Below the pieces are notes generated by a model. That model saw only the letters and a program-made list of their open reading frames with translations. It did not search any database and was not told where the DNA came from. DNA of 32,908 bases from a phage, in assembly GCA_021421665.1 (NCBI GenBank), contig GCA_021421665.1_4698.1. One strand, given 5' to 3'. Of the stretch, positions 497 to 7,836 are shown piece after piece. How positions within the stretch are numbered: position 1 is the stretch's first letter; the number at the start of each line of letters is the position of its first letter. A program made the translations under genes and the position numbers.

Positions 497-695
497 ACTA
501 AGCAAAGTTTGCTCTTGCGGTAAAGGCTATCGTAGTCGTATCGATGGTAAGTGTGAAAACTGTAGAAGCCAGAAGGATAAGGATGTGCTCTACTTATTCT
601 GGCGTGATGTATCAATACTTGATGTGAGTCCTGATTCTTTAAAAGGTAAAGTTCTAAGATTAAACACTTTTGGAGCAATCTATGAAATCAATTGA
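483..695 (+). CDS. small Cys-rich protein (70 aa), possible zinc ribbon
   Basis: ATG at 483 with GGAGGA 5 nt upstream; CSCGK...CENC four-Cys arrangement; the ORF-track start at 456 lacks an SD. Confidence 0.45.
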   Translation: MKTIKLSKVCSCGKGYRSRIDGKCENCRSQKDKDVLYLFWRDVSILDVSPDSLKGKVLRLNTFGAIYEIN

Positions 696-3228
696 TTGGA
701 AGAAGGAAGCAGAAGGTCGTATCCTCGTCATGGACGCCGAAAGTAAAGGTCTTCTTGATGCTATCCGCTATGGTCATCGTGAAGATGTACACATCATTTG
801 CTGCATGGATTTGCTTACTACCGAGGAGTTCTTATTCTTCGACCCGTATGAGATGCGTGACCCTGAAGCAAGGGAGCGCCTGAAGGAATGGGAAGGGCAT
901 CAAGATGGTGACTTGGTTGATGGTGTTAACTTCCTGAAGCACTGTGAAGCTATCGTGTCACAGAACTTCCTAGGATATGACGGTCTTCTCTTTGAGAAAG
1001 CATTCCCTGCTATCTGGAAAGGTTTTAACTATACCGAGAGGCGAGGCAAGGGCAGACTCCGCGCTGACCTGTGTCCTGTGCGAGTCATGGACACGCTGGT
1101 GATGAGTCGCCTGTTAAACCCCGATAGGCGCCTCCCTCCGCAAGCATACGCCAAAGGTATGGGTAACGTCGCCCCTCACTCAATTGAGGCGCACGGCATC
1201 CGTATAGGCCGCTATAAACCGGAGAACAAGGACTGGTCTAAGCTGACCGACCACATGGTTCACCGTGTACGTGAGGACGTGGCGATTGGTCGTGACTTTT
1301 TCCTGTGGCTGTATAACGGGGAATGGGTGGAGCACAAACGCCGTGGCGTGAATAAACGTACTGGCCTAGGCATTGAGACAGCCTTCCACATGGAATCCAT
1401 TGTGGCGCTGGAGATGAGCCGTCAGGCCGAGCGCGGATTCCGTCTGGACATCGACAAGGCGTTAGCGCGATGCGAAGAACTGGACGCTAAGGTTGATGAG
1501 ACAGTCGCAGCGTTCCGTCCGCACATGCCTATGCGTATCAAGTCTAAACCTTTTAAACCGGAAGAAAAGAATGAAGTATGCCAACGCGCAAATGAGTATG
1601 GAGCTAGCAACAATATACCTACTATCCTGGACCCCTCTCACTTTCTTCACACAGAGAGACGAGGAGATCGCAAGACAGTATGGAGTGTCACTACTAAGTC
1701 TGGTGATTGGTCAGCTAGTGTCAAGAAAGACTTTCCTCACCTTAGAGGAAACCGTAATGACACGCCAAGCATCAAGTGGATTGGTGCTTACTCGCCTGTT
1801 ACTTTCGAAGAAATTCCCTTGGGTAACAGGGATACAGTTAAGCAAGTGCTCTATGATTATGGATGGAAGGGTGTTGAATTTAACGATACCGAGCAAGCGC
1901 ATCTGGATGAGCACGGAGTGTTACCCAAACCTTGGAGTGGAAAGATAAATGAGAAGTCCCTTACTTTATGGCAGGAAAGAGCCGCACGTGAAGGTAAAAC
2001 AGTCCCTGATTGGTGCTTGGGTATCGCTGCATGGTACATACTCGTATCCCGTCGTGGTCAGATACTCAACCGTGGTGACGTTGAAGCCTTCAACGAGAAA
2101 GGAACGTGGCCCTCGCAGGCTGGTGTACGAAAGTGTCGCGGCCTTGTACCTGTAGCTTTTAACAAGGAGTTAGGGATCAATGCGCAGCAATACTACGAGA
2201 GGTATGGGTGTTGGCCTACGTCTGACAAGGATGACGGAGAGTGGCGTGTGCCAGCTATTGCTATTAGCATTGGCACTTCTACGTTCCGTATGCGTCATCG
2301 TAACGTGGTTAATATTCCTGCCCGTGGCTTGTATCCTTTACGTGATTTATTCATAGCAGGTGAAGGTAAGTTAATCCTAGGCTGTGATGGTGCAGGTCTT
2401 GAACTACGTGTACTATCTCACTTCATGAATGACCCTGAGTACCAAGATATTGTACTGCACGGTGACATACATACGCATAACCAGATGAAGGCTGGTCTTC
2501 CTAAGCGGGATATGGCGAAGACATTTATATATGCTTTCCTTTACGGATCTGGTATAGCAAACCTTGCAGCAGTATGTGGTGTTACTGAGGAAGAAATGAA
2601 GGAAGTTGTGGCAAGATTCGAGATTGAACTACCATCTCTTGCACGTCTTCGTGAGAATGTTATTGCACAAGGCAACAAGTTTGGCTACCTACAAGCACCT
2701 GATGGACACTGGGGTCGCATCCGTATGTCTGGTGGTGAACTTAAAGAGCACACTATGCTTAACGTATTGCTACAGATGACTGGTTCTTTGTGTATGAAAT
2801 ATGCATTGGTTAAGGCATTTGCAGTGATGCGCAAGGAAGGTGTGGCCTTAGATGGTATGGGAAACCCTTGTGGTGTAGCTAACGTGCACGATGAAATCCA
2901 GATGGAAGTACCTGAAGACGAGGTATTATATCTTAACTACGACTTACCTTTCACCCTAGAAGGGTTTGAAACAGAGAAGGCTGCTGTGAAGGCAGTGTTC
3001 GATGCAGAGGAGAAACGTGTTCATGTTGATTCCGAAGGGCGCATGTGGTCGGCTGCTAACTTGGTTGAAGTGGATGCTACTGCTGGTGTGTTGCGTTGTC
3101 AGCGTCGCTACCACAGGGCTGGTCATATTATCGCTGACGCAATGACTTGGGCTGGTCAGTATCTGAAGATGCGTTGCCCGATGGCAGGCGAATATAAGAT
3201 TGGTGCAAGTTGGAAGGAGACACACTAA
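682..3228 (+). CDS. DNA polymerase, family A (T7 gp5-like), with N-terminal 3'-5' exonuclease region
   Basis: Pol I motifs read in translation: DGAGLELRVLSHFMND (motif A), RDMAKTFIYAFLYGSG (motif B), VHDEIQMEV (motif C); resembles recalled T7 gp5 blocks GLELRCLAHFM and AKTFIYGFLYGAG. Start taken at ATG 682 (GGAG upstream) rather than the TTG at 670. Confidence 0.95.
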   Translation: MKSIDWKKEAEGRILVMDAESKGLLDAIRYGHREDVHIICCMDLLTTEEFLFFDPYEMRDPEARERLKEWEGHQDGDLVDGVNFLKHCEAIVSQNFLGYDGLLFEKAFPAIWKGFNYTERRGKGRLRADLCPVRVMDTLVMSRLLNPDRRLPPQAYAKGMGNVAPHSIEAHGIRIGRYKPENKDWSKLTDHMVHRVREDVAIGRDFFLWLYNGEWVEHKRRGVNKRTGLGIETAFHMESIVALEMSRQAERGFRLDIDKALARCEELDAKVDETVAAFRPHMPMRIKSKPFKPEEKNEVCQRANEYGASNNIPTILDPSHFLHTERRGDRKTVWSVTTKSGDWSASVKKDFPHLRGNRNDTPSIKWIGAYSPVTFEEIPLGNRDTVKQVLYDYGWKGVEFNDTEQAHLDEHGVLPKPWSGKINEKSLTLWQERAAREGKTVPDWCLGIAAWYILVSRRGQILNRGDVEAFNEKGTWPSQAGVRKCRGLVPVAFNKELGINAQQYYERYGCWPTSDKDDGEWRVPAIAISIGTSTFRMRHRNVVNIPARGLYPLRDLFIAGEGKLILGCDGAGLELRVLSHFMNDPEYQDIVLHGDIHTHNQMKAGLPKRDMAKTFIYAFLYGSGIANLAAVCGVTEEEMKEVVARFEIELPSLARLRENVIAQGNKFGYLQAPDGHWGRIRMSGGELKEHTMLNVLLQMTGSLCMKYALVKAFAVMRKEGVALDGMGNPCGVANVHDEIQMEVPEDEVLYLNYDLPFTLEGFETEKAAVKAVFDAEEKRVHVDSEGRMWSAANLVEVDATAGVLRCQRRYHRAGHIIADAMTWAGQYLKMRCPMAGEYKIGASWKETH

Positions 3229-3732: not shown

Positions 3733-4059
3733 ATGTCTATGGTGACTACTCTGGTATTCGTGGCTCAATACTTTCGTGGCTTATCTAATAAGTTTAAGCA
3801 GAAGGCTATCTTTGCAATTCAAGAGCGTATCAATAAAATTGAAGAAGAACAAGTAGATGTAGAAGAACATCGTAGTTCTCAAATGATTGACTGCCACAAC
3901 CGCTACTATGCATCTCGTGATGACCTTAATGCGCGTCAAGTCAAAGAGGTTGAAGAGATGCTGGCCGCCACCAGCAAGAGCGTGACAAACTGGAAGCTGA
4001 CTTCGAAGAGAACAAGGCACCCATCGCCCTTGTACATCAAGCCGCATCTGACAGCTTGA
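3733..4059 (+). CDS. hypothetical coiled-coil-like protein; C-terminal part may continue in the -1 frame to 4109
   Basis: AGGAGG SD before ATG 3733. A second frame is open 3954..4109, lacks a start of its own, encodes a coiled-coil-like peptide and ends at the SD of the next gene. Confidence 0.5.
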   Translation: MSMVTTLVFVAQYFRGLSNKFKQKAIFAIQERINKIEEEQVDVEEHRSSQMIDCHNRYYASRDDLNARQVKEVEEMLAATSKSVTNWKLTSKRTRHPSPLYIKPHLTA

Positions 4060-4118
4060 AGAAAGAGATTGTTATGCTGGAGATTGAACTGGACAACCTA
4101 ACTAAGTAAGGAGTTATG

Positions 4119-4415
4119 ATGGAAGAAGTGATTCAAGCTAAACATGTAGGTATCATCTTTCGTGATCTAGAGCAGCGTAAAGTTGCAGGTCATACCCGTT
4201 TGGCTAAAGAAGATGATACAGCAATCGCTACTGTTGAACAAGCAGATGCCTATCGTGGGCCAGAGTTTACTCAAGGTGAAACTTGTCACCAATTGAGCCT
4301 GTCACTTTGTGACACTATGGCTAGTGTGAATGTGCAAGAAGTTGAAGATGGAGACTGTGTTAGCTACGTCTACCCTCTGGACACTGTTGCACGTATTAAA
4401 GTAATTCATAAATAA
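4119..4415 (+). CDS. hypothetical protein (98 aa)
   Basis: AAGGAG at 4108-4113 is 5 nt before ATG 4119 (ATG 4116 is also in frame); stop abuts the next promoter. Confidence 0.55.
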   Translation: MEEVIQAKHVGIIFRDLEQRKVAGHTRLAKEDDTAIATVEQADAYRGPEFTQGETCHQLSLSLCDTMASVNVQEVEDGDCVSYVYPLDTVARIKVIHK

Positions 4416-4436
4416 TTACTGGACACTATAGAACAA
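4414..4436 (+). promoter_or_regulatory. SP6-type phage RNAP promoter AATTACTGGACACTATAGAACAA
   Basis: Core GGACACTATAGAA conserved; predicted +1 G at 4431; intergenic. Confidence 0.75.
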
Positions 4437-4506
4437 TAGGACGTGGGTTTGTCAGAGACAGTAAATCCAAGGTGCTCAGTGAGCGTAAAGCCTAAGCACG
4501 TCCTAT
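4436..4506 (+). promoter_or_regulatory. large stem-loop at the 5' end of the transcript (RNase III-site-like)
   Basis: ataggacgtg (4436-4445) is a perfect 10-bp complement of cacgtcctat (4497-4506), enclosing 51 nt with sub-hairpins; further hairpins at 4531-4547 and 4551-4565; 188-nt untranslated leader before ATG 4625. Confidence 0.4.
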
Positions 4507-4624
4507 GATTGTAAAGTGTTTAACCGCCTTTTGTGCATCTTGCACAACCCGAATCAATCGGGCTTTCTAGTGAGTACATGCTTGTGCTCAGTACAAAGCT
4601 AACTGACAATAGGAGACTAAATAA

Positions 4625-5431
4625 ATGGCACGTGGTGATTTTGATTTTGGTGCTCAGGTTACTAAAGCTGAAGGTAAAGTATTTAAGAACCCTGAAGTTG
4701 GTGATCATGAAGCAGTAATCTCTGGCATCATTCATGTTGGTTCCTTCCAAGATATCTTTAAGAAAGGCAATACCACTGAAGTTAAGAAGCCAGCAAACTT
4801 TGTGCTTGTTAAGATTGTCCTGATGGGTGACGATGACAAGAACGAAGATGACTCTCGCATGGAACAATGGATGGCTGTGCCTCTGAAGTCTGGTGACAAG
4901 GCAACCTTGACTAAATTCCTGAATGCAGTTGACCCTAAAGAGTTGCTAGGTGGCTTCGATGACTTCATCGGCGAATGTCTGACTGCAACTATGGTTGGCT
5001 CTGGAGACAAGAATGACGATGGCTCATTCAAGTATGTCAACTGGAAGGGCTTTGGTGGTATGCCGGATAAGCTGAAGAAACTTGTCATTGCTCAGGTTGA
5101 AGAGGAAGGTCTGTCTATGACAGGTCACATTACCTTCGACAAGCTGACCAAAGAAATCCTTGATGATATTCCAGCTAACTTGGTGCGTCAATATTTCCTG
5201 AATGAGACACCTCGTGGTAAGAACCTGTCTGTTGCTGGCTCTCACGTAGAAGCAATCATTAAAGCTGCTCGTGAAGAAGACCCAGAGTGGAAGAAGTCTA
5301 AGAAGAAAGAGGATGAAGATGCTACCCCAGCTAATCGTAAGCCTCTTGATACTGGTGAGACTGTTCCTCAGGAAGTACCGGAAGCAGACAATGCGCCTGC
5401 ACCGGAAATGGATGAGGACGCGGAATACTAA
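4625..5431 (+). CDS. hypothetical protein (268 aa) with acidic C-terminal tail; candidate ssDNA-binding protein
   Basis: AGGAGA SD; C-terminus ...APEMDEDAEY is acidic and ends in an aromatic residue, as in T7 gp2.5 (...DGDF). Functional call is inference only. Confidence 0.55.
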   Translation: MARGDFDFGAQVTKAEGKVFKNPEVGDHEAVISGIIHVGSFQDIFKKGNTTEVKKPANFVLVKIVLMGDDDKNEDDSRMEQWMAVPLKSGDKATLTKFLNAVDPKELLGGFDDFIGECLTATMVGSGDKNDDGSFKYVNWKGFGGMPDKLKKLVIAQVEEEGLSMTGHITFDKLTKEILDDIPANLVRQYFLNETPRGKNLSVAGSHVEAIIKAAREEDPEWKKSKKKEDEDATPANRKPLDTGETVPQEVPEADNAPAPEMDEDAEY

Positions 5432-5440
5432 GGAGGTGGG

Positions 5441-5659
5441 ATGAAAGTACAAATCGTAACCCTGCATTGCAAGAAGGGCATTACAACGCTTGGCGGTAAC
5501 ACTTTTCACTCCTTCTCTGAGGGTGAGACATACGCCGACCTGCACTACATCTGGCGCGATGGACAGCACGTGGTGAACTATAGTGACCCCACTACGGGGA
5601 AACGCCACGGCGTATCGCTTCCGGCGCATGACATTGCGCAGGTGAACACAGTTTTATAA
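5441..5659 (+). CDS. hypothetical protein (72 aa)
   Basis: GGAGGTGGG SD immediately upstream of ATG 5441; tightly packed after the preceding gene. Confidence 0.55.
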   Translation: MKVQIVTLHCKKGITTLGGNTFHSFSEGETYADLHYIWRDGQHVVNYSDPTTGKRHGVSLPAHDIAQVNTVL

Positions 5660-5660
5660 A

Positions 5661-5676
5661 GTCTCACACGTGAGAC
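5661..5676 (+). other. hairpin gtctca-CACG-tgagac (family member)
   Basis: 6-bp stem with tetraloop seen directly; no T-tract follows; lies between a gene end and the promoter at 5692. Confidence 0.3.
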
Positions 5677-5691
5677 AAATAGGTGTCCGGT

Positions 5692-5714
5692 ATTTACTGG
5701 ACACTATAGAAGAG
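5692..5714 (+). promoter_or_regulatory. SP6-type phage RNAP promoter ATTTACTGGACACTATAGAAGAG
   Basis: 21 of 23 match to the canonical SP6 promoter; predicted +1 G at 5709. Confidence 0.8.
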
Positions 5715-5764
5715 AAGAATTTTAATCGGCGATAATGCCACAACCAACAAAAGGAGAATTTAAT

Positions 5765-6130
5765 ATGTTCAAGATTGAAACTATCGTAAACCGTGTTGTT
5801 AAAGGTGCTGCTCTGGTATCCGTTGAGTCTTTCATTATCGTCGATGAAGCCGACCAACTGGTAGCTGGTACTAAGGCTTATGATACTCGTGAAGAAGCTC
5901 AGGCTAAAATTGACAGCATGGGTAACTTCGCTGCTGGTCTGGAGTTTGCTCGTGCTTGTTTCCCTGAGCAGGCTGACAAAGCTCAGATTGGTAAGGCTAA
6001 CATCGTAGCTGAGTATCTGGATTGGATTGCTGCTGGTAAACCCGTGAAAGAAGCTAAGGCTGAAGAAGCTGAAGTAGTAGAAGACGTAGCTGCACCGGAA
6101 GTACCGGTAAGCGAAGAAGAAGAGTTTTAA
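5765..6130 (+). CDS. hypothetical protein (121 aa) with acidic C-terminal tail ending in Phe
   Basis: AAGGAG SD 8 nt before ATG 5765 (ORF-track start 5735 lacks an SD); C-terminus ...PEVPVSEEEEF; own promoter upstream and terminator-like hairpin downstream. Confidence 0.6.
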   Translation: MFKIETIVNRVVKGAALVSVESFIIVDEADQLVAGTKAYDTREEAQAKIDSMGNFAAGLEFARACFPEQADKAQIGKANIVAEYLDWIAAGKPVKEAKAEEAEVVEDVAAPEVPVSEEEEF

Positions 6131-6194: not shown

Positions 6195-6500
6195 ATGCCG
6201 ACTATTGGATCTCGTTTAGTAGCAGACTATGTTTATGGTTGTGACTTAAAGCTGGGACAAGATTATTTTAAAGTAATCGTCTTGCTGGATGGAGAAGTGT
6301 TTCACACTAAAACATTCACCCTACCTGAGTTATTTGATTTAGGTTATTGGGGTTATACTTATCAGGCCATAGCAGACAAGGTGCTACTCAGTGTATTAGA
6401 GGAGTGGCCTACATGCGACCAAACTTCGACTTCGGAGCTACAGTATCGGAAGACAATAATCTCATCCTGTGGCCGACTGAAGGTAATCGAATCGCTTTAG
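6195..6500 (+). CDS. hypothetical protein (101 aa)
   Basis: GGAGA SD before ATG 6195; its 3' end overlaps the exonuclease start by 88 nt, so its true extent is uncertain. Confidence 0.4.
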   Translation: MPTIGSRLVADYVYGCDLKLGQDYFKVIVLLDGEVFHTKTFTLPELFDLGYWGYTYQAIADKVLLSVLEEWPTCDQTSTSELQYRKTIISSCGRLKVIESL

Positions 6501-7441
6501 TAGATGCTGATATGTTGCCTTATATCGTAGGGTATACAATCAGTGACATGACTTATGTACGAGCCACAACTCGTGTTAAGTCAGGGCAAGTCCCATCAAT
6601 CAAAGATACACCTGAGTGTAAGCAAGCGTGTGACCGTGTGAACTCCCTGCTTAACTCTTGGGTGTATGCAGCAGAGTGTGATGCTGCTAAGTTATTCATG
6701 ACGAAATCCGAAGCTAACTTCCGTGTTCGCCTAGCATTCACCAAGCCTTATAAGGGTCAACGTAAGACCGAGAAGCCTCCATTCTTCTATGAATTGCGAG
6801 AGCATCTCTTAGAGGTTCACGGTGCAATCTTGGCAGATGGAGAAGAGGCTGATGACCTTATGAGCATCGCACAATGGGACAGCCACCGACGCTTCCAGCA
6901 AGATACAGGTAACGAGTTTCCTATCGGTAGTCCAGAGCATAAAACATTCTCTGATACTTGCATCGTTTCCTTAGATAAGGATTTGATGATTGTTCCCGGT
7001 TGGCATCTTCAGCCGGGTCAAGAGAAGAAGTGGGTAGAGCCTATGGGTTGGCTTGAGCTACGCCGTAAGGCTAATGGTCAAGTCAAAGACCTAAAAGGTG
7101 CTGGCCTCATGTTCCATTATGCACAGATGATTATTGGTGATGATATCGATAACTACTCTGGCATACCGGGTCGTGGCGCTAAGTATGCCTATGATCTTCT
7201 CAAAGGATGTAAGACAGAGAAAGATTTGTACATGGCAGTTCTTGGTGCTTACAAGGCTAAGTTTGGACATGGACAAGTTAAGATTAAGAATTACCGAGGT
7301 GGTTATCGTATCGGCAAAGCCTTTGACTTGATGCTTGAATGTGGTCGCCTAGCTCACATGGCAAGATTCAAAGGTGATATATGGCGAGCCGATAAGAACC
7401 CAATCTTGTGGGGAGATGATGCGGAATGGTTAGCAAATTAA
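6413..7441 (+). CDS. 5'-3' exonuclease (T7 gp6-like, FEN family)
   Basis: GAGGAG SD before ATG 6413; blocks IALVDADMLPY, SLDKDLMIVP and IIGDDIDNYSGIPGRG resemble recalled T7 gp6 blocks ILVMDGDWL, SCDKDFKTIP and IKGDITDGYSGIAGWG. Confidence 0.8.
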   Translation: MRPNFDFGATVSEDNNLILWPTEGNRIALVDADMLPYIVGYTISDMTYVRATTRVKSGQVPSIKDTPECKQACDRVNSLLNSWVYAAECDAAKLFMTKSEANFRVRLAFTKPYKGQRKTEKPPFFYELREHLLEVHGAILADGEEADDLMSIAQWDSHRRFQQDTGNEFPIGSPEHKTFSDTCIVSLDKDLMIVPGWHLQPGQEKKWVEPMGWLELRRKANGQVKDLKGAGLMFHYAQMIIGDDIDNYSGIPGRGAKYAYDLLKGCKTEKDLYMAVLGAYKAKFGHGQVKIKNYRGGYRIGKAFDLMLECGRLAHMARFKGDIWRADKNPILWGDDAEWLAN

Positions 7442-7836
7442 AAGCATCGGAGGTGGCAGCTTATAAGAAGGAATTGCTAGATAAGCAAGGATGGAAGTGC
7501 CCTCTGTGCGGTGGCAGTCTAAAGGCTGTCGCCCCTAAAAACCGTGTACTTGATCATGATCATGAGACAGGCTTCTGCCGCGCTGTTGTATGCCGAGGCT
7601 GCAATGGTGCAGAAGGCCATATTAAGGGTGTTATCTCTGGTTATGGTAAGGCAGGTAACAGCCGTTATTTCCAGCTTCAATGGCTAGAGCGGCTATACGA
7701 ATACTGGAAGTTACATAGTACGCCTCAGACTGATAAGTTATATCACAAACATCAAACGGAGGCAGAGAAGCGCGAGGCTAAGAACCGTAAGGCACGCCTT
7801 GCTTATGCAAGAAAGAAGGAGGTTAAAGTTGGGTAA
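7426..7836 (+). CDS. endonuclease VII-like Holliday-junction resolvase
   Basis: CPLCGG...LDHDHETGFCRAVVCRGCNGAEG matches the T4 gp49 signature C-x2-C...DHDHE...G-x-C-x2-CN-x-AEG. Confidence 0.8.
   Translation: MVSKLKASEVAAYKKELLDKQGWKCPLCGGSLKAVAPKNRVLDHDHETGFCRAVVCRGCNGAEGHIKGVISGYGKAGNSRYFQLQWLERLYEYWKLHSTPQTDKLYHKHQTEAEKREAKNRKARLAYARKKEVKVG

Follow-up and report, generated by a model that had tools for sequence, protein, structure and literature searches.

In phage T7, gp2.5 is both the protein that binds single-stranded DNA (ssDNA), called SSB, and the annealing protein. The C-terminal tail of T7 gp2.5 binds the polymerase and the helicase, and it is also a competitor of ssDNA for the groove of the OB fold (PMC10359462; PMC5686142). 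A hallmark of T7-type SSBs is an OB barrel which is capped by a long helix right after strand beta2 (PMC5686142).

Here we describe a locus in a phage DNA stretch of 32,908 nucleotides, called the window in the following, which belongs to a Vectrevirus (SP6/K1E/K1-5-like Autographiviridae). The original prediction was that two of its proteins, of 268 and 121 amino acids, carry acidic C-terminal tails ending in an aromatic residue as T7 gp2.5 and the T7 helicase gp4 do, and that they may be the SSB and another polymerase-interacting replication accessory factor. We consider it probable that the 268-residue protein is a phage SSB with a docking tip; the 121-residue protein, with a third such tip, may be an accessory of the replisome. 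By predicted function, the 268-residue family is most likely a sequence family new as SSB, and the assignment would fill in a replication protein that has been missing in Molineuxvirinae and Colwellvirinae, and also in further lineages, Nankokuvirus among them. Phages of the SP6, K1E and K1-5 types have found wide use: SP6 RNA polymerase (RNAP) serves as a laboratory tool, and therapy makes use of K1 and Klebsiella phages.

Layout of the replication module

The genes and promoters of the module are the following.

682-3228, + strand: family-A DNA polymerase (T7 gp5-like), named DNA polymerase in relatives
4116-4415: ORF of 99 residues, phrog_8057
4416-4433, + strand: phage RNAP promoter TTACTGGACACTATAGAA, immediately 5' of the 268-residue gene
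4625-5431, + strand: gene of the SSB-like 268-residue protein, SP6 gene 16 homologue, phrog_862
5441-5659, + strand: ORF of 72 residues separating the 268- and 121-residue genes, phrog_5791
5694-5711, + strand: phage RNAP promoter, exact match to the 18-mer, immediately 5' of the 121-residue gene
5765-6130, + strand: gene of the acidic 121-residue protein, SP6_20 homologue, phrog_4429
6413-7441, + strand: 5'-3' exonuclease (FEN/PIN-like), labelled exonuclease in relatives, with weak matches to 5'-3' exonuclease NCBIfam models

The 268-residue gene follows the DNA polymerase and precedes the exonuclease. Both it and the 121-residue gene have their own consensus phage promoter, an 18-mer that is observed 8 times in the window compared to 0.02 expected occurrences. 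The order DNA polymerase, 268-residue gene, small gene, exonuclease and endonuclease VII is kept in Molineuxvirinae, Colwellvirinae and unclassified Autographiviridae, and remote members of the 268-residue family are found directly 3' of a PolA and primase/helicase pair. The 121- and 268-residue genes co-occur in a nearly identical set of phage records (213 and 216, respectively), with near-identical genus counts. In every row listed from the 216 GenBank phage records the 268-residue gene is annotated as 'hypothetical' or 'unknown function'. A weak match to phrog_8057 indicates that the 72-residue ORF could be a paralogue of the 99-residue ORF.

As comparison genome we used mutPK1A2, a complete, 92%-identical relative with 59 CDS. 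Neither its annotation nor the PHROGs assignments of its remaining unknown proteins revealed another recognisable SSB.

Predicted fold of the 268-residue protein

The AlphaFold2 (AF2) model divides the protein into four parts.

4625-4678, + strand: N-terminal peptide MARGDFDFGAQVTKAEGK, residues 1-18, pLDDT ~40, predicted disordered
4679-5065, + strand: predicted OB-fold core, residues 19-147
5066-5305, + strand: C-terminal alpha/beta subdomain, residues 148-227, with confident AF2 helices at 148-161, 176-190 and 207-218
5306-5428, + strand: Pro/acid-rich disordered linker with the acidic tip ...PEMDEDAEY (tip at 5405-5428), residues 228-268

In the folded part (residues 19-227) the block pLDDT is mostly between 84 and 94, and the core has the topology beta1-beta2-beta3-helix-beta4-beta5. 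The closest structural matches of the model are OB-fold ssDNA binders. The predicted OB fold, whose absence had been set beforehand as counting against the SSB assignment, is therefore present both in the model and by structural comparison. A point against an SSB is that the core is not basic, with a net charge of -5, although T7 gp2.5 is likewise acidic.

The proposal that this protein is the SSB gains support from the predicted OB fold, the ssDNA-binding structural matches, the position in the module and the lack of another SSB candidate. By this modelling and by analogy, the protein is most likely the phage-encoded SSB of SP6/K1E-like phages, for which ssDNA binding would be expected. Such an SSB would be built from an FDFGA peptide, the OB core with its alpha/beta subdomain, a linker of ~40 residues and an acidic tip whose last residue is Tyr or Phe. 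The analogy to T7 gp2.5 and to bacterial SSB suggests that the OB core would coat ssDNA of the lagging strand and of recombination.

Sequence searches and existing annotations

No Pfam family was found for the 268-residue protein at E-values up to 1, nor for 10 of its remote members. Sequence and profile searches against the PDB (phmmer and hmmsearch, three queries) matched no characterised SSB, and hhalign comparisons of the family profiles with T7 gp2.5 and with the N4 SSB (N4 gp45) gave probabilities of 0.1% and 0.4%, which is noise. This lack of similarity to a characterised SSB counts against the assignment. PHROGs matches were limited to families without an assigned function, namely 862, 6599, 2544, 32668 and 4429, the last being that of the 121-residue protein. 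A profile search over 1.8 billion proteins detected 102 remote relatives, with a terminal Phe or Tyr in 62 of 101. About 25 of the remote relatives carry a tip of the bacterial SSB-Ct type, [DE][DE]x[IVL]P[FY], such as DDDIPF or DDEIPF.

Only one curated model detects the superfamily: NF046043 of NCBIfam, entitled 'phage replication initiation protein, NGO0469 family', which matches 51 of 55 superfamily members with a best E-value of 1.3e-63. The window protein itself is matched over residues 20-107 with 19 bits (E-value 8.5e-4), far below the curated cut-off of 75 bits. From these profile matches, it is a remote relative of the NF046043 family. The earlier statement that neither protein is recognisable by sequence alone thus holds for Pfam, PHROGs and the PDB, but not for NCBIfam, where the remote relatives of the 268-residue protein are modelled.

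Taken at its word, the family name would make the 268-residue protein an initiator of replication, an origin binder or a primase-like protein, which we regard as very improbable. The matches to most of the superfamily speak for it, but the match of the window protein is weak and the name itself originates from a table published in 2007, in which NGO0469 was labelled by marginal BLAST similarity and not by experiment (PMC1931599). The table lists 26% identity with the Rep protein of banana bunchy top virus (over 109 residues) and 32% with a primase of phage A2 (over 87 residues) (PMC1931599). The label was repeated in PMC12186493, and as propagated to the relatives of the 268-residue protein it appears to be without foundation. 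Moreover, the predicted barrel is an OB fold, unlike the initiator folds of the Rep/HUH, primase or AAA+ type, and the SSB-type C-terminal tips suit an SSB, not an initiator. Finally, we know of no dedicated initiator in T7-group phages, in which replication begins from RNAP transcripts, and this too speaks against an initiator.

The literature search returned no earlier characterisation of SP6 gp16 or gp20 or of a Vectrevirus SSB, a prior remark on the tails still being possible, and nothing relevant on phage helicases with SSB-Ct tips.

Conservation of the acidic C-terminal tails

Both of the predicted tails are real. The 268-residue ORF on the + strand (4625-5431) ends in ...NAPAPEMDEDAEY. 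Its last 40 residues have a net charge of -12 and residues 228-268 are predicted to be disordered (pLDDT <50). Among 46 homologues from the database, which reach down to 35% identity, 44 have an acidic stretch followed by a terminal Tyr or Phe; of the remaining two, one is a fragment and the other has a single extra residue.

The second tail belongs to the 121-residue protein on the + strand (5765-6130), which ends in ...PVSEEEEF. This protein is the shorter reading of an ORF of 131 residues opening at 5735, and an AAGGAG ribosome-binding site is located 8 nt upstream of its ATG at 5765. All 120 close homologues end in ...EEEF. Among more diverse homologues (34-60% identity), the terminal residue is Phe or Tyr in 104 of 116 and an aromatic residue is found within the last three positions in 115 of 116. 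The terminal Phe or Tyr is kept across >100 homologues in each of the two families. It is one of the few almost invariant columns, while the preceding 25-40 residues are free to vary in sequence and length, and judged from the sequences the acidic-aromatic tails are not the result of chance.

In mutPK1A2, a net-acidic last decapeptide combined with a terminal aromatic residue is found in only four of the 59 proteins. Three of these four belong to the replication module, namely the primase/helicase (...NFDEESEF) and the homologues of the 268- and 121-residue proteins.

The 121-residue protein

The 121-residue protein is a small, very acidic predicted alpha/beta protein with a net charge of -13 and a pI of 4.3. 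Residues 1-97 are folded and the Ala/Glu/Pro tail, which ends in EEEEF, comprises residues 98-121 (6056-6127, + strand), predicted by AF2 to be disordered with pLDDT <50. K72, K77 and N79 are conserved in its helices. Its AF2 model has no OB fold and no informative structural match, and the protein has no Pfam family. DUF1508/UPF0339 (YegP-like, Pfam: PF07411) was touched by one of 44 family members with an E-value of 0.09, which is noise, and no clear fold match resulted. To our knowledge, UPF0339 is a family without known function.

By its model this protein is not an OB-fold SSB. With neither an OB fold nor an informative structural or family match, the polymerase-interacting accessory factor of the original prediction is no more than a reasonable guess. 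The protein could be an accessory or regulator of the replisome that binds the same receptor as the other tips, as an adaptor or competitor.

A different role would be that of an acidic decoy or anti-host protein, a mimic of DNA or of the tail which titrates a host nuclease or a host SSB-interacting protein. The T7 gp5.9 gene sits between genes 5 and 6. The 121-residue gene occupies a comparable slot between polymerase and exonuclease, which is home to small host-directed proteins in T7-like modules, and at one locus (L011) a gp5.9-like ORF follows the 268-residue family member. The strong acidity fits such a decoy, and the fold matches no replication protein. On the other hand, the protein does not match the Pfam gp5.9 family, and its tip resembles the tips of the phage helicase and SSB-like protein (EEF), not that of the host SSB (IPF). 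In Uliginvirus the tip changes in step with that of the SSB-like protein, the two genes co-occur, and the conserved K72, K77 and N79 would be expected of a specific binding surface more than of a simple mimic. We therefore see the decoy as possible but doubtful.

Matching tips within genomes

The T7 gp4-like primase/helicase of this phage group, whose gene lies outside the window, has an acidic tail with a terminal Phe, as in mutPK1A2, which strengthens the T7 analogy drawn for the 268-residue protein. The tips compare as follows.

T7: gp4 ...NDTDF; gp2.5 ...EDGDF
Vectrevirus: helicase ...EESEF; SSB-like ...EDAEY; small protein ...EEEEF
AS51: helicase ...DTQEF; SSB-like ...EEQEF; small protein ...EDEEF
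Njord: helicase ...PKTFE; SSB-like ...EQTFD; small protein ...EESFS; one residue past Phe in all three
PAK_P5: helicase ...GDDDIPF; 268-residue family member ...FDDDIPF

In these five lineages the helicase tip and the SSB or SSB-like tip are alike. Strict co-variation of all three tips was considered and rejected; it is true in Njord and fails in Nerthus and Achelous, where the helicase retains its terminal Tyr and the other two tails are extended by 1-2 residues past the Phe. Because of this difference, a strictly common receptor for the three tips is unproven.

It might be argued that both tails lack a docking role and are low-complexity ends of an incidental kind, given that acidic, Ala/Pro-rich disordered ends are common and that nine of the 59 mutPK1A2 proteins end in an aromatic residue. 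We give this hardly any credence, with the aromatic residue kept in >100 homologues per family despite a hypervariable linker and with like tips on helicase and SSB-like protein in all five lineages.

The tip of the 268-residue protein would instead be a short linear docking motif, which may fold onto the protein's own DNA-binding groove or plug a basic pocket of a partner, most plausibly the phage DNA polymerase. With a primase/helicase that carries the same kind of tip, SSB and helicase would share or compete for the receptor. By analogy to T7, the window polymerase is a candidate receptor for the acidic tails. It aligns to T7 gp5 with 34% identity over palm and fingers only, the thumb/TBD region being unaligned, and of the four basic residues in the T7 'front basic patch' only two have an aligned counterpart in it (WGRIR vs KWKRR), so that the patch is only half conserved. 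Tips that are matched within genomes, of the EEF type in those nearest to the window protein and of the IPF type in PAK_P5, represent a natural experiment on the specificity of tail and receptor, and could offer a route to receptor mapping and orthogonal replisomes.

An N-terminal peptide common to the SSB-like protein and the exonuclease

Besides the C-terminal tips, there is a motif at the N-terminus of the 268-residue protein, in which F6, D7, G9 and A10 are invariant or nearly so in the family. The same motif is found at the start of the exonuclease.

6413-6466, + strand: first 18 residues of the exonuclease, MRPNFDFGATVSEDNNLI

This FDFGA/FDYGG peptide, which co-varies between the two N-termini, is new here. 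A recent DNA duplication was rejected as its origin, with the two coding stretches differing at nearly every synonymous position. The co-variation suggests that the SSB-like protein and the exonuclease are recruited to each other or to one partner.

The shared peptide also bears on whether the 268-residue protein is mainly the single-strand annealing partner of the exonuclease, comparable to Red-beta and lambda Exo, with the 121-residue protein in the same recombination module. In each lineage examined its gene lies two genes 5' of the exonuclease and endonuclease VII, and T7 gp2.5 doubles as SSB and annealing protein and is so annotated. However, annealing is compatible with an SSB and does not exclude it. 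A place in the replisome is indicated by the match to the primase/helicase tail and, in remote lineages, by the position directly behind PolA, and no similarity to Erf, RecT/Red-beta, Rad52 or Sak4 was found in Pfam or PHROGs. A mainly annealing function is thus unlikely, and we continue with the SSB as the preferred assignment.

Speculatively, and with rather little confidence, the replication-recombination machine of SP6-like phages and Colwellvirinae might be wired by two sets of short linear motifs, with the clade-specific 121-residue protein as adaptor. The C-terminal acidic-aromatic tip would be carried by the primase/helicase, the SSB-like protein and the 121-residue protein, and the N-terminal FDFGA/FDYGG peptide by the SSB-like protein and the exonuclease. 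The folded domain of the 121-residue protein would receive the N-terminal peptides while its tail docks on the polymerase, so that exonuclease and SSB would be handed to the fork. If true, this adaptor would represent a phage replisome hub protein of a new kind, without T7 counterpart. As to how a minimal replisome brings in its nuclease for Okazaki fragments and recombination, leads are offered by the N-terminal peptide and the small tailed protein.

Comparison with known SSB systems

The N4 SSB ends in ...KSLFGKK and therefore differs from the 268-residue protein in having no acidic tail, and there is no profile similarity between them. PrgE of plasmid pCF10 (PDB: 8s4s), a phage-derived atypical SSB, has 15% identity to the 268-residue protein, with no match at the sequence level. 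It is shorter (144 aa), has no long acidic aromatic-tipped tail and binds not only ssDNA but also dsDNA.

Bacterial SSBs (Pfam: PF00436) share the overall plan of an OB core, a disordered linker and an acidic tip ending in Phe, which serves as a protein-interaction hub, and remote relatives of the 268-residue protein end in DDDIPF, DDEIPF or DDEVPF. In contrast, the window protein has no Pfam SSB match and its tip DEDAEY is without the I-P-F signature.

The differences to T7 gp2.5 concern sequence, fold and gene order. No sequence or profile homology to T7 gp2.5 or DUF2815 was detected in the 268-residue family, and neither T7 gp2.5 nor Enc34 ORF6 (DUF2815) is among the top structural matches of the model. 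The helix after beta2 of T7-type SSBs is absent from the AF2 model, which has none between beta2 (37-47) and beta3 (57-66); its first helix (94-102) comes after beta3 and before beta4, which is the arrangement of classical OB folds. Two parts of the 268-residue protein are extra, the alpha/beta subdomain on the C-terminal side and the conserved peptide at the N-terminus, and its gene follows the polymerase, whereas T7 gene 2.5 does not and precedes the helicase.

In its overall organisation the 268-residue protein is nevertheless like T7 gp2.5. Both are phage-encoded proteins of ~230-270 aa with a single OB domain in an Autographiviridae replication module, and both genes have their own phage promoter (phi2.5 for T7 gene 2.5). 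Both proteins also have a C-terminal tail that is long, disordered and acidic and whose last residue is aromatic, with a matching tail on the cognate gp4-like helicase. By this analogy, the 268-residue protein is expected to work like T7 gp2.5.

Conservation of the acidic tails

The original prediction of two proteins with acidic, aromatic-ended C-termini holds for both proteins and both tails: the 268-aa SSB-like protein (4625-5431) ends in ...DEDAEY and the 121-aa protein (5765-6130) in ...EEEEF. The terminal residue is Tyr or Phe in 44 of 46 homologues of the 268-aa protein, and all 120 close homologues of the 121-aa protein end in ...EEEF. Among 116 diverse homologues of the latter, 104 have a terminal Phe or Tyr and 115 have an aromatic within the last three residues. 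In both family alignments the final residue is among the best-kept columns, the linker ahead of the tip differs between homologues in length as well as sequence, and AlphaFold2 predicts both tails to be disordered. Of the 59 proteins of one complete related genome, just four have a last decapeptide that is acidic and closes with an aromatic residue; three of them are the primase/helicase (...NFDEESEF), the 268-aa and the 121-aa protein. The tail feature of both proteins is thus confirmed as real and beyond chance.

Gene order and promoters

Vectrevirus genomes (mutPK1A2, NIC06P3, VEc3 and the ULINTec phages) are 92-93% identical to the 2-kb stretch around both tailed genes, and by sequence similarity the phage is a member of the SP6/K1E/K1-5 group (Autographiviridae, subfamily Molineuxvirinae). 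Every gene of the window is on the + strand, and the local order is as follows:

682-3228, +, DNA polymerase, first in the local order
between DNA polymerase and 268-aa gene, +, three small ORFs
4625-5431, +, 268-aa SSB-like gene
5441-5659, +, 72-aa ORF
5765-6130, +, 121-aa gene, start backed by an AAGGAG ribosome-binding site
6195-6500, +, 101-aa ORF, overlapping the exonuclease start
6413-7441, +, 5'-3' exonuclease
7426-7836, +, endonuclease VII
downstream of endonuclease VII, +, metallophosphoesterase, kinase and ligase
3648, 4416, 5694, 8833, 14037, 26687, 28795, 30457, +, phage promoters (TTACTGGACACTATAGAA)

The SP6/K1E-type promoter 18-mer TTACTGGACACTATAGAA occurs in eight copies (0-3 mismatches), against 0.02 expected. 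One copy directly precedes the 268-aa gene (4416-4433), one the 121-aa gene (5694-5711), and another lies ahead of the major capsid gene. Dedicated promoters fit proteins that are required in quantity; in T7, too, gene 2.5 is served by a promoter of its own. The 193-nt leader between promoter and SSB-like start codon (4432-4624) is more stably folded than its shuffles (-57 kcal/mol, z -2.7), and its 5' end forms a long imperfect hairpin. By analogy with T7 transcripts, the leader might act as an element for RNase III-type processing or for stability.

The 99-aa (4116-4415) and 72-aa ORFs, which flank the SSB-like gene, are apparent paralogues (phrog_8057) with similar C-terminal ends, ...YPLDTVARIKVIHK and ...LPAHDIAQVNTVL, and a comparable 91-aa ORF ending in ...FPMHTVARVKRWV follows the SSB-like gene in Uliginvirus. 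In RefSeq relatives the 101-aa ORF goes under the PHROG-derived name 'DNA repair protein' and the 108-aa ORF (3733-4059) under 'polysaccharide chain length determinant protein'; Pfam and NCBIfam gave no backing for either, and the names look unreliable. The exonuclease C-terminus (7400-7441) and most of its orthologues in the comparison phage loci L005-L015 show an acidic stretch followed by Trp one or two residues from the end (...GDDAEWLAN, ...EEAAEWN, ...SDPEWNE, ...EDSVWTE, ...VDASWNA), while in AS51 the Trp sits at a greater distance from the end (...DKEFWHDRTA). The feature may be one more terminal motif or just where the fold ends.

Predicted fold of the 268-aa protein

The 268-aa protein matches no Pfam family and no PDB sequence, even with family profiles, and belongs to phrog_862, a PHROG without known function. 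We surveyed 60 of the 216 matching phage records, picked evenly along the ranking, and all annotated rows shown read 'hypothetical protein' or 'unknown function', including SP6 gene 16. The AlphaFold2 model (alignment of 20 sequences; mean pLDDT 78, pTM 0.72) is confident over residues 19-227, with residues 1-18 and 228-268 predicted to be disordered. It has the canonical OB order, with strands 26-36/37-47, 57-66, 118-125 and 138-144 and helix 94-102, plus an additional strand (80-86) between strand 57-66 and the helix, and an alpha/beta subdomain (148-227) after the OB core. In Foldseek, RPA-ssDNA complexes are on top (probability up to 0.94), bacterial SSBs and PriB appear further down, and T7 gp2.5 and Enc34 ORF6 are absent among the matches listed. 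An OB fold had been guessed for one of the tailed proteins, and the predicted model bears this out.

The hallmark of T7-type SSBs, a long helix straight after beta2 (PMC5686142), is missing in the predicted model, and hhalign of the family against T7 gp2.5 and N4 SSB gave probabilities of 0.4% or lower. Given these two results and the lack of a gp2.5 or Enc34 ORF6 match, the 268-aa protein is, as modelled, an OB-fold protein for which no membership in the T7-type, N4-type or bacterial SSB families can be detected.

Remote relatives and matched tips

Searching 1.8 billion representative proteins with a profile returned 102 relatives. Closer ones keep a ...[DE]x[DE]E[FY] tip, and about 25 remote ones end in [DE][DE]x[IVL]P[FY] (DDDIPF, DDEIPF, DDEVPF, DDDLPF), the type of end that is the C-terminal signature of bacterial SSBs. 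The two remote relatives that could be placed on contigs lie directly 3' of a family-A DNA polymerase plus a primase/helicase, as well as 5' of an exonuclease. One is PAK_P500054 of the Pseudomonas phage PAK_P5 (Nankokuvirus).

C-terminal tips of primase/helicase, SSB-like protein and small protein
T7: gp4 helicase ...NDTDF; gp2.5 ...EDGDF
Vectrevirus: helicase ...EESEF (mutPK1A2, L004 6707-8695, upstream of the window region, T7 gp4-like, ...NFDEESEF); SSB-like ...EDAEY; small ...EEEEF
Vibrio phage AS51: helicase ...DTQEF (L010 3996-6092, T7 gp4-like, ...DVDDTQEF); SSB-like ...EEQEF; small ...EDEEF
Pseudomonas phage Njord: helicase ...PKTFE (L015 881-3019, T7 gp4-like, ...DEPKTFE); SSB-like ...EQTFD; small ...EESFS
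PAK_P5: helicase ...GDDDIPF (L012/L016 748-2700, tip DDDIPF); PAK_P500054 ...FDDDIPF

All three Njord tips have one residue past the Phe. In Nerthus and Achelous the helicase keeps its terminal Tyr, whereas the other two tails are lengthened (...EQEFGE; ...ETFE or ...ESFEG), so the co-variation of the three tips between phages is suggestive, not strict. An OB fold, a polymerase neighbour and a disordered acidic tip that tracks that of the cognate helicase are what would be expected of a replisomal SSB.

The NCBIfam model NF046043 picks up 51 of the 55 superfamily members, at best with E 1.3e-63; the window protein matches it weakly, with 19 bits against a cut-off of 75. Its full name, 'phage replication initiation protein, NGO0469 family', would make these proteins replication initiators. 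Its origin is an annotation table of 2007 for the Neisseria prophage that carries NGO0469, which relied on matches to a plant nanovirus Rep (26% identity over 109 residues) and to a phage primase (32% over 87 residues); elsewhere that paper (PMC1931599) guesses that the gene 'probably encodes the primase'. No experiment supporting the name was found. As the name rests on marginal BLAST hits, and the predicted fold and the tails suit an SSB and not an initiator, we give the initiator reading a low probability; the label is probably wrong for the remote relatives, which appear to be SSB-like OB proteins.

The small tailed partner

The 121-aa protein (phrog_4429, again without known function; counterpart SP6_20) is encoded in 213 phage records against 216 for the 268-aa gene, essentially the same set, with identical genus counts save three Pseudomonas records. 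In every locus examined, its gene is placed between those of the SSB-like protein and the exonuclease. The AlphaFold2 model (44 sequences, pLDDT 79) shows a long beta-hairpin (3-26), short strands, helices 42-51, 55-65 and 71-89, and finally a tail rich in Ala, Glu and Pro (98-121) that is predicted to be disordered. D27, F61, K72, K77 and N79 are among its conserved positions. In Uliginvirus its tip changes jointly with the SSB-like tip. This joint change, the tail, the co-occurrence and the own promoter are most economically explained by a putative replisome accessory or regulator that acts on the same tail receptor. The protein is strongly acidic (net -13, pI 4.3), and an acidic decoy aimed at the host also has to be reckoned with. 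In the metagenomic phage contig L011, an ORF (6869-7027) similar to the RecBCD inhibitor T7 gp5.9 lies two genes 3' of a remote SSB-like member, indicating that the slot from polymerase/SSB to exonuclease also houses anti-host proteins.

A shared N-terminal peptide

The SSB-like protein and the exonuclease share a conserved N-terminal peptide (encoded at 4625-4678 and 6413-6466, respectively), which co-varies between phages (FDFGA vs FDYGG). The consensus in the window and loci L005, L008, L009, L010, L014 and L015 is Mx(2-7)F[DN][FY]G[AG]x[VIL][AST][EKQ].

Shared peptide in SSB-like protein and exonuclease
Window: MARGDFDFGAQVTKAEG; MRPNFDFGATVSEDNN
Aer_P220: FDFGAELES; FDFGAELSQ
Reminis: FDYGADVAE; FNFGAELSE
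AS51: FDYGGEVAE; FDYGGGIAE
Nerthus: FDYGGSVAE; FNYGGEIAE

Six-frame scanning for F[DN][FY]G[AG] of the window, the entire mutPK1A2 genome and four other loci gave no site beyond these two in each of them. F6, G9, P23 and G26 are invariant in 12 sequences of the two unrelated families. The coding DNA of the two peptides is dissimilar, which rules out a recent duplication and indicates selection on the peptide. The peptide occurs in 23 of 101 family representatives, mainly in those nearest to the window protein, and almost all 23 have EEF/EEY-type tips. In the two remote loci both the family member and the exonuclease lack it, and no nearby ORF has an acidic tail with terminal Phe, judged by the tail end only.

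The peptide, predicted to be disordered in the monomer model of the SSB-like protein, is probably a second docking motif, one that recruits SSB and exonuclease to a partner they share, for which the 121-aa protein is a speculative candidate. Alternatively, it could contact the neighbouring SSB subunit, as in the plasmid pCF10 SSB PrgE, with the exonuclease borrowing the same handle.

Proposed mechanism and comparison with known systems

Genes, predicted folds and disorder, conservation, synteny, matched tips and promoters were obtained directly; for the mechanism we draw on established T7 and E. coli knowledge (PMC10359462, PMC5686142). The OB core of the 268-aa protein would coat ssDNA, with the acidic tip rivalling DNA for the OB groove and its terminal aromatic docking in a basic site of the polymerase, possibly also of the helicase. 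The helicase tip would occupy the same site, and the 121-aa protein would offer a third tip. Alignment of the window polymerase with T7 gp5, which covers palm and fingers only and keeps two of the four basic residues of the T7 front patch, did not locate the receptor.

The SSB-like assignment is of use to annotators and offers concrete starting points for studying how the replisome is wired. SSBs that combine an OB fold with an acidic tail and an aromatic tip are well known, and this one would not surprise a T7 specialist; the tails may have been remarked on earlier. What is new is an SSB-like family that is not linked to any characterised SSB family and that databases leave unannotated or misname, with its added C-terminal subdomain, an N-terminal peptide found also on the exonuclease and a co-conserved small tailed partner.
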